DNA from: Ginglymostoma cirratum
Taxonomy: Eukaryota
Assembly (NCBI GenBank): GCA_024137785.1
Contig: JAHRHZ010000022.1
Span: forward strand, 32,275,660-32,339,659
DNA: 64,000 bases
Direction of reading: 5' to 3'
Within the stretch, counting starts at the first letter, position 1; every line of letters begins with the position of its first letter. The translations under genes were made by a program, and so were the position numbers. The notes below the pieces were generated by a model that was not told the origin of the DNA, did not search any database, and was given only the letters and a program-made list of their open reading frames with translations. This document shows positions 6,495-47,599 of this stretch, piece by piece.

Positions 6495-7110
6495 ATACCA
6501 TGTCCGGAGTACTACGTACAGTATTGATCTCTATATTTAGAAAGGATGTAAATACATTCGAAACAGTTCAGAGAAGGTTTACTGCAGTAAAGCCTGTAAT
6601 GACAAATTTCCTTAAGAGGAATGGTTGGACAGGCTGTGTTGGTTTAAGTGGGAATTTTAGAGCAAGAAGTAACTTGATTGAAACATATAAGATCCTGAGA
6701 GGTGGTAGGATGTAGAATGCATATTTCATCTTGGGGGAGAACCTAGTATCTGGGTCATTTTTTAAAAAATAAGTGATCACCCATTTATAATAGGGATGAG
6801 GAGATCTTTAGAACTCTCTCTTCCTCGACAGTGAAGCAGAGCCTTTGAATACATTTAATGCAAAGGTAGATCCTTATTAGAAAGAGGTGAAGATCATCAG
6901 GTAAAATTAAAGCAAAATACCGTGGATGCTAGAAACCTGAAATAAAGACAAAGTGCTTGATAAACTCAGCAGGTCAGGTTCATGTTTAGAATCTGATACG
7001 ACTTCTTCAGGACAGTTATCAAGGATGTAGAGTAATCAAGGTCAGCCATGATCTAATTGAATAGAAAAGCAGGCTTGAAGAGTCGAATGGTCTGCTGCTG
7101 CTCTCAGTTC
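6495..7110 (+). mobile_element. CR1 LINE 3' end
   Basis: ORF 6500-6715 RKDVNTFETVQRRFT...LIETYKILRG; tail aggcttgaagagtcgaatggtctgctgctgctc; interrupted at ~6905-7010. Confidence 0.85.
6905..7010 (-). mobile_element. Related PLE-derived short element nested in the CR1 tail
   Basis: aaagcaaaataccgtggatgctagaaacctgaaataaa...aaactcagcaggtcagg...gacttcttcag, same architecture as the 11213, 46668 and 62333 copies. Confidence 0.6.
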
Positions 7111-27384: not shown

Positions 27385-30300
27385 TGTCCAAGGAAAGGTC
27401 TCCTAACTTTTTCAAACAATCTTCACAGTTTGGTTTCATAGATGAGGACTATCTTCTTATGAATCTTTTGTGCACCCTCTCCAACAAAATGTGGATTTAG
27501 AGCAGCAGCAGGCCATTGGTTCGTTGAACCTTCTGCGCATTTCTTAAGATCATGGCTGACCTGTTTGTGTTCTGAAAGGCACACTTCCATTTATCTTCAG
27601 TAACTTTTCATTCCTTGCCGAACAAGAATCCTCCTCAGTCCTAAAAATCTTCAATGATCCTACTTCTACTGCCTTCTGAGGCAGAGAGTTCCAAAGTCCC
27701 TCAACCCTCTGAGACACAAATATTCCCCTCATCTCAGTCCTAAAAGGGTGGCCCCTAAAAGTCCTCCCTGAAGTGCAGTGCGTAGAACTGAATGCAAGTC
27801 TCCAGCAAAGACTAAACTAGCATCCTGTGCAAGTAATAGCAACACCTTGTTCTTGTACTGTATGTCCCTGTTAATAACATCCCAAATACTATATACTATA
27901 CTAATTGCTCTCTGTCCATAACTTATGTTCATCTATGCCAAGGTTCCTCTATTGTTCTTGCTGCAAAATGAATCACTTTGCATTGAACTTCATCTGCAAT
28001 TGTCTGTGCATTACATCAACTTGTCAATATCCTTTTCAAATTCTACACTGCTCTCCTTACAGTTGAGTGTTCTGAAGTTCGGTGTCTTCTGCAAATTTTG
28101 AAATTGTGCCCTGTAGGTCAAGGTCGAGGTCATCATTATTGAAACATGATTTTCCCTGAAGAAATACCTGCTGACATTTTTGTTAATCCACCCTTGTCAA
28201 TACGCCAGTTAATTGTGTGCCATATTGTTGGTTCTGGAAGCCCCATTCTTACAAAATTTACATTAACTGGCCTGCAGTTTCTGGGTTTATCCTAGTGCCT
28301 TTTTATTTTGAGTTGTAATGTTTGCAAATCTCCAATCCCATGGCATCACCTCTGAATCTGAGAAAGGCTGAAAAATTGCGGCTGGTTCTTCTTTAATTTC
28401 TACTCTACCTTACCTCAATATCCTTTGAATGCATCTCCTCTGGTTCTGGTACCTTGTCTTCTTTAACTATAGACAGCTTTTCCAATACCAGCTCCTTATT
28501 GATTGTAAACCATTCTCATGTCTAACTGTCCTCCTCTTTCACTATGGCTGGAATAGCATCATCTTCCTTACTAAAGACATTTTGCAAAGTATTTGTTTTT
28601 AATACCACAGTTATGCCCTCTGACTCCATGTGTAAATCCCCTCTTCGTTCCTATTTGTCTCTATTCCCCTTTTCATCACTCTCTTTTTATACACTTAGGG
28701 GAGACATTGCAATTCTCTTTTTTATTGACTGCCTGTTTTTCCTAACTCTCATTGTTTGCTTCTTTCACTTGTATTTCTGCCTCTTCTTTGAACTTCCAAT
28801 ATTCAGCCTGGTTCTCATCTGTATTTTCTACCTGAGATAGTAGGAACTGCAGATGCTGGAGAATCCGAGATAACAAGGCGTGGGGCTGGATGAACACAGC
28901 AGGCCAAGCAGCATCAGAGGAGCAGGAAAGCTGACGTTTCGGGCCTAGACCCTTCTTCCGGCTCTACACCTTGTTGTCCTTGTATTTTCTGCCTTATGGG
29001 TATCATAAAAACACTTATTCCTCTTTAACTCAATTTCTATCTCTTTTGTCATGCATGGAGCTCTGACTTTGTTTACCGTACCTTTTTCTTTCGAGGCCTT
29101 GACAGTGCCTGAATTATCTTGTTCCTTAAAAGTAAACCATTGGTCAATTATAATGTTTCCTGTCGACTTTTGACTGCGATATTTATTTGGTCCAGATCCA
29201 TTCTTACCTCCCTGAAGTTTTAATTTCTCTAGTAAAGTATTCTTACTCTAGATATTTCTGTTTTGTCCTTTTCCACAGTGAACCTAAATCTCATTACACA
29301 ATGATCACTGGCTTCTACATGTTCTCCAATTGACATTTGTTCCACTTCATTCCCAAGGATGAGGTCTAGCAGTGCCTCCTTTCTTATTTAAGCACATGGG
29401 TGCCAAACTTCTTCCTGGTTACATTCTAGAAACTCTTGCTCCTCAGCCCCCTGTCCATTGTTCCTATACCAGCCTCTATTCGGATAATTCAAGTCTTACA
29501 CTACCTTTTGCACGTCTGTTGCATGGCATTGTTCTGCCAATTATTTTCTTCTACGTCCTTCCCACTGGTGATCTACGCACAACACTGACCAATTACACGT
29601 TATTCATGATGTAGCTGTCGCCAGATAGACATTCTTGTCCTTTTTGGGATATCCTCACTCTCCAGTACTCCAATGACCTTAATACTGCCACCTGTCCCTT
29701 TTTTGTTCCTCTCCCTGAACACTTTGTATCCAGGAATATGTAAACCCAACCCTCCCTTTCTTTGAGGCAAGTCTCTGTAACAGACACAACATTGTGTTTT
29801 CACCTGACAATCTGCAACTATAACTCACCAATCTTATTTATCACACGCCATGAATTCCCGTACATGTGCAGCCACCCTGATTTAGATCTTATTCATTTCT
29901 CCTGACTCTGATTCCACCCTATTGACTTAGTATTCTTTTAATTCTAGTGCTGTCTATCCTTACCAGTATTTTGTGCACCTTGGTACTGGGGGTCTTTATT
30001 CAGATCTTCCCGATAGCTCTACCAAAATGCCTCACGAGGAGCCTGGCGCAGTGCTATTCGGATGCAACTGGTCTGCCCTGTAACAGTCTAATCTACCCCA
30101 GAGCCAGTCCCAACAAACTGAAGCCCTCTTTTCTACGCTACCTTTACAGCTACATGTTCACCTGCTTTCTTCACATATTGCTATACTCACTTGTGGCACT
30201 GGGATAATCTGAAGATTACTACTTTTTAATACTGCTTGCTAATTTCCACCCTATTTTGAGCGCAGGATCACATCTTTCTTTTTGCCTGTGTCATCTGTAC

Positions 30301-45523: not shown

Positions 45524-46058
45524 AAAGATAGTAAGAACTACAGGTGCTAGAGTCAGTCAGTCACTCTGAGAAGGAAAGAAATGCAGATGCAGAACTGCGC
45601 CCACCCCACCCTCCCACTCCCTGGGTGACATGTCCATTTTGAACCTCCTCTGGTGCCACAGTGACGCCACACGCAAACTAGAGGAACAACACCTCATATT
45701 CTACCTCGAGAGCCCATAGCCCGATGGCCTCAACATAGAATTCATTCGTTTCAAAATCTCTCCACCCCTGTCCTCATCCCATGTCCAACCCCCCCTCTCA
45801 ACCCTGCCTCCTCGACCTGACACTACCCGTCCGTCTTCTTCCCAACCTATCCCCCTCTCCCTTCCCACTCATCAATCTCCACTACCCCTACGTGCATCCA
45901 TCTGTCGCCATCCCACCTACCTTCCCACAGCCCCCGCTCCTCTTCCCTCTGTTTATTTCCCCACTCCCTTCCCCTCCCTAGTCCTGATGAAGGGTTTAAA
46001 CTTTCCTGCTCCTCTGATGCTGCCTGACCTGCTGTGTTCCTCCAGCCCCTCACTGTAT
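45524..46058 (+). mobile_element. 5'-truncated Penelope-like element with inverted 5' tip and perfect 17-bp TSD
   Basis: TSD tccctccattatttctg 45507-45523 and 46059-46075; GIY-YIG C-terminal remnant; C/T-rich 3' UTR; gtcCTGATGAaggg hammerhead half at 45981-45994; ends gatgctgcctgacctgctgtgttcctccagc. Confidence 0.9.
45612..45743 (+). pseudogene. C-terminus of PLE RT/GIY-YIG ORF (one in-frame stop)
   Basis: SHSLGDMSILNLLWCHSDATRKLEEQHLIFYLESP*PDGLNIEF resembles the typical vertebrate PLE ending R..EE..I..L....P.GLN. Confidence 0.8.
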
Positions 46059-46667
46059 TCCCTCCATTATTTCTGTACTTTAAGACTGCTTTCATGAGAT
46101 CCAGTCCTGGATGAGACAAATTAAACATTGGGACTATCAAAGGCGTTGTAGTAACCCCCCACCAGAGACTTTGTTCCATTACCACGCATTCTGTATGTTC
46201 AAACTTTGCACTTCCACTGCGCTTTACTCTTGATCCGACATTGTCACGTGTTGAATCTAACTTTGAAATTCCGGCATTTACTCACCCATAAACTGTTTAT
46301 AGATGTACAGTTTGGATTCTACCAGGTTCCAGGCCTCGTTCCAGCCTCAGTGCAAACATGGACAAGAGCTAAACTTGAAAGTCAAGATGTGAGTGACTTA
46401 CCTTGACATCAGGATAGAATTTGACGGAGTAAGGCAGCAAGGAGTCCTAGCAAAATTTAAACCAATGGAAAATGGGTGAACATGCTTCATTGGTTGGAGC
46501 AACACTTATCACAAATGAAGCTAGTCAGGTTGGTGAAGATCAAGGACGACACTACAGGGTGGCCTTTGCGTAATTATCCTAAACCACCGTAACCTGTTGC
46601 GTTATCAATGACCATTTAAATATAAGGTGGGGCTAGTGACCAGAAACTGAACTGGAACAGCAATATG

Positions 46668-46761
46668 CATAAACAGAAATTGTTGGAGGAGCTCAGCAGG
46701 TCAGGCAGGTGTGGAGAGACAAACCAAAGTTAACATTTTGAACCCATGATTTTCCTTCAGG
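46668..46761 (-). mobile_element. PLE-derived short element nested in LINE
   Basis: aaacagaaattgttggaggagctcagcaggtcaggcag...gtggagagacaaaccaaagttaacattttga...ttccttcag. Confidence 0.65.
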
Positions 46762-46973
46762 TACTGTGGCCAGATGAGCAGGTCAGAGGCTGGGAATTCT
46801 TTGGTGAGTAACTCCCCTCCTGACCCTCCCAGAGCCTGTCTGTCATTCACAAGAGATAAGTCAAAATTGTTTCAGAGATAGTAGGAACTGCAGATGCTGG
46901 AGAATCTGAGGTAATAAGGTGTCGAGCTGTATGAACACAGCAGGCCAAGCAGCATCAGAGGAGCAAGAAAGCT

Positions 46974-47001
46974 GACGTTTCGGGTCTAGACCCTTCTTCA
47001 G
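46974..47001 (-). ncRNA. Minimal type I hammerhead ribozyme core, intact
   Basis: Minus strand CUGAAGA-A-GGGU-CUAG-ACCC-GAAAC-GUC: full catalytic core, perfect helix II, loop-less ACGU helix III. Confidence 0.7.
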
Positions 47002-47005
47002 AAAT

Positions 47006-47033
47006 CTGAAGATGGGCGTAGACCGGAAATGTC
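47006..47033 (+). ncRNA. Hammerhead core on the opposite arm, partly decayed
   Basis: CUGAAGA-U-GGGC-GUAG-ACCG-GAAAU-GUC. Confidence 0.5.
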
Positions 47034-47599
47034 AAGCTTTCTTGCTCCTCTGATGCTACTTGGCCTGCTGCGTTCATCCAGCTCTACACCTTGTTACCTC
47101 AGTCAAAAATGTGATGGGATGCTCTCCAATTTCCTTGATGAGTGCAGCAGCAACAATGTTCAAGGGGCTTGCCAACATCCAGGATAAAGCACGGTGCTTC
47201 GTTGACACCTCATCCACCACCTTAAGCATTCACTATGTCCATCATTGGCTCACAGTGGCAGCAATGATATACCAAATGGATCGTGGCAACTAGCCAAAGC
47301 TCCTTCAATCACACCTTCCAAAACTATGAACTTCAACACCAAGAAGGACAAGGGCAGCACTTGCATGGGAACATCGTAATTGGCAGACTCCTCTCCAAGT
47401 CACACCCTGTTTCTTCACCATCACTCAGACTCAGCAACAGCATTGTGGGTATACTTATACTTCCTGGACTGCAGCAGTTCCCAAAGATGGCTCCCTCCAA
47501 TATGAGGGATGAGCACCAAATGCTGGCCTTGCCAATGATGCTGACATCCCATGAAGGAATAAGGAGGGAAAAAAAAGAAAGCAAAGCTTGTAAACCTCA

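Follow-up and report, generated by a model that had tools for sequence, protein, structure and literature searches.

The window, i.e., the whole 64,000-nt stretch of Ginglymostoma cirratum DNA that was analyzed, carries at 46871..47102 an insertion of an endonuclease-bearing (EN+) Penelope-like element (PLE). Its main part is a palindrome composed of a first arm (46906-47002, 97 bp), the spacer AA and a mirror arm (47005-47102, 98 bp). The fold-back with arms of about 97 bp and a 2-nt spacer, described in the initial annotation, is real, as its minus-strand fold reaches -160.6 kcal/mol (z = -19.7) and 0 of 200 shuffles were equally stable. The arms differ in 11 of 98 columns (10 substitutions and 1 indel). 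Arm 1 is a pLTR segment with the element's sense on the minus strand, and its cDNA end AGAAAT extends to 47005, which is the common stop of the family. Arm 2, on the plus strand, is the inverted pLTR segment without a tail, and the two meet in the head-to-head joint CAGA-AA-TCTG (47003..47006). The span 46871..47102 was originally regarded as the fold-back itself; the palindrome lies inside it, but its first 35 bp (46871..46905, minus strand) are outside the palindrome and represent the Penelope "tail". This tail is found in arm 1 only and is placed between two classes of reverse-transcription (RT) starts, at the second of which arm 2 ends.

The insertion is flanked on the plus strand by a target duplication, AGTCAAAATTGT on the left (46859..46870) and AGTCAAAAATGT on the right (47101..47112), whose form is AGTCAAAA(T/A)TGT. 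The 12-bp duplication reported earlier is present, but with 11 of the 12 bases identical. The final 2 bases of arm 2 overlap the right duplication. The last 8 bases of the left duplication, AAAATTGT, equal the element's own continuation, TTAAAATTG-TTTCAG, and therefore the single mismatch may be derived from the element.

Both strands of the palindrome contain a hammerhead core of the form CUGANGA...GAAA...UH, which also occurs in 249 of 322 motifs of the family, although the search pattern was biased toward it. On the minus strand (47001-46974, with the predicted cut between 46974 and 46973), the core CUGAAGA-A-GGGU-CUAG-ACCC-GAAAC-GUC is complete, stem II has 4-5 bp and helix III is the palindrome ACGU. 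The plus-strand motif (47006-47033) shows G-G and C-A mismatches in stem II, with the pair G10.1-C11.1 lost, and AUGU instead of ACGU, with the helix III palindrome lost; these two features are thus confined to the minus strand. An intact minus-strand core with a decayed mirror copy, as first annotated, is confirmed. As a ribozyme, on the other hand, the minus-strand motif is intact in its core alone, since stem I is formed by U-A and U-G and then interrupted by a U-C mismatch, i.e., helix I has 2 bp at the cut site, where minimal type I hammerheads have 4-6. Among 120 read-through motifs of the family, the third stem I pair is formed in 38% and the fifth in 0%. An older family of the same genome (L275-L304) keeps a stem I of 4-5 bp (AGUC/GACU), most of which the present, younger family has lost. 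The Rfam scan of the window (E <= 1) gave no hammerhead, and its three matches are chance hairpins.

The identification of the element as the terminal repeat of a PLE, bearing a minimal type I hammerhead motif, is upheld. As in the metazoan PLE hammerheads of Cervera and De la Pena (2014, PMC4209133), there is an extra base between A9 and G10.1, a G10.1-C11.1 pair and a palindromic helix III; unlike them, stem II has 4-5 bp rather than 6-8. The available text of the same source reports a 2-bp helix I in Penelope of D. virilis, pairs of hammerheads on opposite strands 100-700 bp apart, and no in vitro cleavage by single minimal PLE hammerheads. The earlier suggestion that a read-through RNA would bury the ribozyme agrees with the computed folds, in which the probability of stem II is 0.00 in the full hairpin versus 0.45 in a single arm. 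The ribozyme motifs of this locus are likely dead passengers and are predicted not to cleave. No function is indicated for this copy of the palindrome.

The search of the genome (4.36 Gb) showed that the locus is one decayed copy among thousands. The 40 candidates scored all align to most of the palindrome's length at 85-100%. A 30-mer of the arm has 92,294 exact matches and the unfolded continuation of the arm occurs 9,601 times. Beyond the 35-bp tail the element continues into the N-terminus of an ORF, in partial tandems; the repeat is found directly upstream in 21 of 29 N-terminus loci, with lengths from 19 to >1,450 bp, which is the arrangement of a partial tandem (pLTR). The coding domains are met in longer genomic copies and not in the stub at 46871..47102. 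In detail, three of the five scanned fragments carry an RT and/or GIY-YIG signal: GIY-YIG is above the Pfam cut-off in one (E 3.7e-5, 24.4 bits, cut-off 22.6) and below it in one further fragment, and RVT_1 is present in two, below the cut-off (E 0.0015-0.0035). The longer copies also include a YIDD motif, an RT upstream of the EN in one 419-aa frame and, in their translations, the Cys-rich RT-EN linker CNRRKCYTC. A Zn-finger-like Cys motif in this linker is described as a feature of Neptune/Nematis (PMC8557442), and the family is, judged from its sequence, probably Neptune. A literature search on shark PLEs returned no relevant paper.

Palindromes centered at the same spot number 2,176 genome-wide. 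A self-propagating palindromic mini-element with a master copy, MITE-like or retrozyme-like, would account for the exact centre CAGA-AA-TCTG being seen 31 times and in 11 of the best 30 loci, including the locus studied. However, these are 31 of 2,176 near-centre palindromes, 47 of the 50 centres listed are distinct, and arm lengths form a continuum to >2 kb. Moreover, among copies that share this centre, the subfamily alleles of both arms vary and the ends are not the same. As centres differ and a shared centre is found in copies of different subfamilies, a master hairpin is absent, and the palindromic master subfamily, which the initial annotation had set against its own reading, is already largely refuted; we regard a mini-element as highly improbable. 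The one-sided tail, the variable centres and lengths and the target duplications of 10-19 bp do not agree with a MITE or fold-back DNA transposon. Non-LTR retrozymes, defined in the available part of bioRxiv 10.64898/2026.07.22.740005, consist of units repeated head to tail, every unit having its own type I hammerhead, unlike the head-to-head pair found here.

In order to describe the usual layout, the first 100 anchor matches on contig C1 were taken; they fall in 78 stretches with 130 insertions, of which 36 were left out due to masked bases nearby. The remaining 94 comprise 45 inverted pairs, 47 single arms and 2 others, but the true share of inverted copies is lower because pairs offer the anchor two chances to match. 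Arm starts are bimodal and 35 nt apart, at reference positions 1-8 in 69 and 33-44 in 73 of 164 arms. One tail arm and one tail-less arm are combined in 42 of the 45 pairs, and pairs with two tails are absent (0/45). This one-of-each rule differs from a 50% expectation with p = 9e-10, and single arms are divided almost equally (23 with tail, 24 tail-less, n = 47). A target duplication of 10-19 bp is found in 31 of 45 pairs, 10 of 47 singles and 0 of 135 shuffled flank pairs; its lower frequency at singles looks as if the unextended target end were often trimmed. A tail arm with an inverted tail-less arm and a 10-19 bp duplication is the routine product of the family, and the locus is not special in this respect. 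Among 53 pairs, the tail arm is longer in 15, the tail-less arm in 24, and 14 are within 10 nt. A tail arm that is always shorter, as for a trailing RT on the same RNA, was not seen (15 vs 24, p = 0.2).

The joints between the arms were determined in 33 short pairs. Inserted bases, often locally copied, are present in 23 of them (some may be alignment ends in diverged arms), 9 show microhomologies and 1 is blunt. Such locally copied insertions resemble end-joining by polymerase theta. A mirror arm produced by fold-back should be contained in its template arm. In the 24 of 53 pairs with the shorter tail arm, each arm includes bases that the other does not have. These two results leave the earlier proposal that the second arm was templated from the first unsupported. 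The general form of that proposal is self-priming, in which a single strand of cDNA or antisense RNA folds back and serves as primer for the mirror arm, and the tail is removed from one end by the endonuclease. It was put forward for head-to-head junctions by Arkhipova et al. (2013, PMC3846280), the tail has been ascribed to endonuclease resolution (PMC8557442), and it would account directly for variants shared by the arms and for the 9 microhomologous joints. On the contrary, the 24 mutually non-contained pairs require trimming as an addition, 23 of 33 joints have insertions, tail-less singles start where tail-less mirror arms start, the arms of some pairs differ by lineage, and two start sites have been demonstrated in vitro (PMC11167929). 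Self-priming is considered unlikely.

The locus is probably a dead, 5′-truncated, head-to-head insertion, likely made by twin priming on one RNA. The endonuclease would make a staggered cut, with nicks about 12-15 bp apart, and both 3′ ends would prime reverse transcription, the one at the outer start, giving the tail, and the other 35 nt inward, giving the tail-less arm. Usually both would use the same RNA, or RNAs transcribed from a single source copy, which would explain the shared variants. Synthesis of both cDNAs would then proceed to the end of the uncut template, whose 5′ terminus likely lies 4 nt upstream of the hammerhead core. Host end-joining would fuse the two cDNA ends, and the arms would afterwards decay, mostly independently. 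That nearly every pair joins one start of each class suggests a single RNA served by two active sites. In LINE-1 twin priming, both ends of a staggered cut also prime cDNA and produce an inversion; the two L1 cDNAs cover different parts of the RNA, unlike the cDNAs of this family, which overlap almost fully and result in an inverted duplication.

The three variants which had been described as private to the two arms are indeed absent from the copies at 1, 5757 and 28834. Two of them are nearly private, as gagcaAg is carried by 2.7% of arms and gagGtaa by 405 arms against 15,120 with the alternative (about 2.7%); tagAcc, however, is a common subfamily allele, found in both arms of 17 of 44 pairs. 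Genome-wide, gagcaAg is located in both arms of 10 palindromes (1.6 expected), in one arm of 98 and in neither arm of 2,093. The chance that arm 2 shares at least two of the five rare changes of arm 1 is about 0.007. The two rare variants occur together in 7 arms with about 11 expected, and on this count G41+A96 was rejected as a subfamily haplotype. An A/G asymmetry between arms among the 30 best matches is a selection effect (genome-wide 51 vs 47).

Arm-to-arm identity within a copy exceeds identity between copies, as the initial annotation had proposed to examine. The non-CpG difference in 45 pairs is 7.5% within copies versus 11.2% when permuted, with a minimum of 9.5% in 1,000 permutations. 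In 68 pairs (positions 45-140), the arms share rare variants at 0.152 (permuted 0.021), mid-frequency variants at 0.634 (0.111) and common variants at 0.757 (0.328), while CpG transitions are shared at 0.235 versus 0.195, which is not significant. In the coding parts of long arms, shared changes are synonymous in 21 of 36 cases against 51 of 165 arm-private changes (p = 0.0035), the neutral synonymous expectation being 30% and the frame assignment being imperfect near the frameshifts of the reference itself. Shared changes which are also found in other copies show the same pattern (18/28 versus 55/175 private, p = 0.001), and those confined to one pair include 8 synonymous and 8 not (p = 0.17). 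Because shared changes are enriched for synonymous ones, most of the sharing was inherited from source elements under selection. The sharing of such lineage variants also indicates that the arms usually come from one template. Judged from the DNA, one RNA or two RNAs of one locus would fit alike.

Alternatively, two cDNAs from unrelated RNAs could have been joined and the arms homogenized later by gene conversion or hairpin mismatch repair, and later homogenization had been offered beside templating in the initial annotation. It could explain why the two rare variants of the locus do not form a subfamily haplotype, and also the CpG sharing of long arms (0.325 versus 0.202, permuted maximum 0.324), although this excess fits diverged source copies as well as some conversion. 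Its role as the main cause is disfavored by the synonymous enrichment given above. In addition, shared changes are spread along the arms, CpG decay of short arms is shared at chance level, and the arms of the locus still differ at 11 columns that are interleaved with shared sites. Overall, this origin is very unlikely. For gagcaAg and gagGtaa at the locus, conversion may have acted, given the weak pair-only signal (8 to 8) and the long-arm CpG sharing.

Different lineages within one pair are also met, since 12 of the 68 pairs differ at two or more of nine diagnostic sites. In the tree of four long pairs, three are formed by sister arms and the arms of the fourth (L123) are not grouped. The tail-less arms of L121:936-2755 and L123:2138-4781, which are 28 kb apart, group together with support 0.98 and end at 1250 and 1248; either both derive from the same truncated source, or two RNAs took part in a single event. 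One of the 12 differing pairs, L041:1418-2208, was rejected as a two-RNA event because its short arm has its own duplication. It consists of two insertions of different subfamilies that share a target site and are both flanked by the same duplication, and it mimics an inverted pair.

The ends of 145 unmasked arms (a few counted twice from overlapping loci) include 56 at reference positions 130-139, with the mode at 135; no arm ends at 140-151. At the ribozyme cut (site 104), these arms show no accumulation of cDNA ends, a result that indicates an uncut template RNA and nothing more; an apparent cluster at the cut was due to masked bases and disappeared in unmasked arms. The sense strand at the stop reads CCA(+1)TTTC, which is initiator-like, and the predicted start is the A of AUUUCUGAAG. 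TATA boxes and initiators have consensus motifs and a typical spacing. Here a TATA-like 7-mer starts at -31 in 93 of 131 read-through copies (TATTTAT in 90, one mismatch in the others). The -31 spacing is kept in the older family over a different spacer. Of the 30 copies listed for that family, 20 end at the same position, many of them with mirror arms (one copy belongs to the young family and two are duplicates). In the older family, the 4 nt that immediately follow the likely start make up the 5′ strand of stem I; cleavage would therefore take away the cap together with 32 nt. The available texts report internal or pLTR promoters for Penelope (PMC2377424; PMC3846280), with TATA and Inr in the pLTR of rotifer Penelope (PMC3846280). 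Arms often stop at what is, from these sequence features, likely the transcription start and not at the ribozyme cut.

The common stop might instead be a pause of the RT before a C-rich run of the RNA, a change that would alter only the run-off step of the twin-priming scheme. The stop immediately precedes CCCCCUUCCCCUCCCCC and long cDNAs pass it. No cap signature is shown by the counts of the next base (C 843, A 212, T 1,113), where C and T can come from the mirror arm as well. Against a pause stand the TATA-like box at -31 with the initiator-like motif, the spacing kept in the older family over a different spacer, and the TATA and Inr of the rotifer pLTR (PMC3846280), by which a pause becomes a possible but rather doubtful explanation. 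Among full-length copies that reach position 130, 13 of 15 read past the stop, compared with 46 of 102 ordinary arms. The stop is therefore not a hard end for all templates, and for full-length copies a strand jump, circular RNA or longer transcripts must be added to a start at this site. For the locus itself, no RNA is on record as carrying it. In four runs presumed to be RNA, the family is represented by contigs whose loose ends coincide with the genomic ends, and a start would not be visible in them. In a run of a second organism (X3, L209:1511-1647), loose ends fall on the same positions of the family, and a related species may have both the family and its stop.

Chances are about even for a more specific reading, namely that the palindromes are a genome-wide record of Penelope insertion by a dimer on one RNA, with both ends of the staggered cut primed at the two starts that bound the tail, near the 5′ end of the RNA, and with strong-stop cDNAs ending at a cap site defined by TATA and Inr and placed 4 nt ahead of the ribozyme core. 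According to the accessible part of Frangieh et al. (2024, PMC11167929), the protein of Poseidon PAc from Anolis carolinensis is a predicted dimer that nicks and extends both strands in vitro, with two RT starts flanking the tail and mainly uncut RNA as template, and its hammerhead is near the ORF start; the present family is similar in the two starts, the probable nicking and extension of both strands, the probably uncut template and the position of the hammerhead. Unlike PAc, it has the Cys-rich linker CNRRKCYTC, as described for Neptune, and in the text available the PAc study does not derive the inverted copy from double priming. The layout is already in print for PLEs: the tail is described in PMC8557442 and PMC11167929, and Pen2a_Av and its relatives (PMC3846280, with the overall scheme given by Craig et al. 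2021, PMC8557442) share with the shark family a head-to-head inverted 5′-truncated copy with target duplication, a 30-40 bp tail at one end, a pLTR leading into the ORF start and TATA/Inr in the pLTR. Unlike Pen2a_Av, both arms here are reduced to about 100-135 bp in thousands of copies, and the data favor twin priming over the self-priming proposed in 2013. If the dimer and strong-stop reading is true, inverted pLTRs would be explained by it instead of by the published self-priming model; for longer copies, it would require a strand jump or a circle made by the ribozyme.

The family, more than the locus, is of importance as a natural experiment on PLE insertion. The making of inverted PLE copies is called undefined in the available text of PMC8557442. 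None of the open-access papers listed in the literature searches derives the inverted PLE copy from twin priming or mentions a strong-stop cDNA for PLEs. What is added here are the tests of arm variants, the allele counts across the genome and the -31 spacing. The one-tail/one-tail-less rule, the variants shared through the template and the fixed stop lead to predictions that are directly testable in the existing PAc in vitro system. The large load of hairpins may also be a source of dsRNA.

Other copies in the window show the same elements of structure. The copy near 28834 (28820-28995), apparently single, is a lopsided inverted insertion whose tail arm has 125 bp and whose mirror arm has about 17 bp, with a target duplication of 14 bp, TGTATTTTCT(A/G)CCT. 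Between 5761 and about 6040, a tail-less arm continues beyond the common stop into the G-rich body. Older Penelope-like stubs are located at 45940-46075, 46684-46762 and 6960-7015; the stub near 45980 has lost part of the hammerhead and keeps TGTTTAT about 30 nt before the initiator-like CTAGTCC. Elsewhere in the genome, identical centres about 450-550 bp apart (C2:23584784/23585328, C4:11798354/11798847, C12:30893472/30893919 and C100:7572770/7573293) represent local duplications or assembly artefacts.
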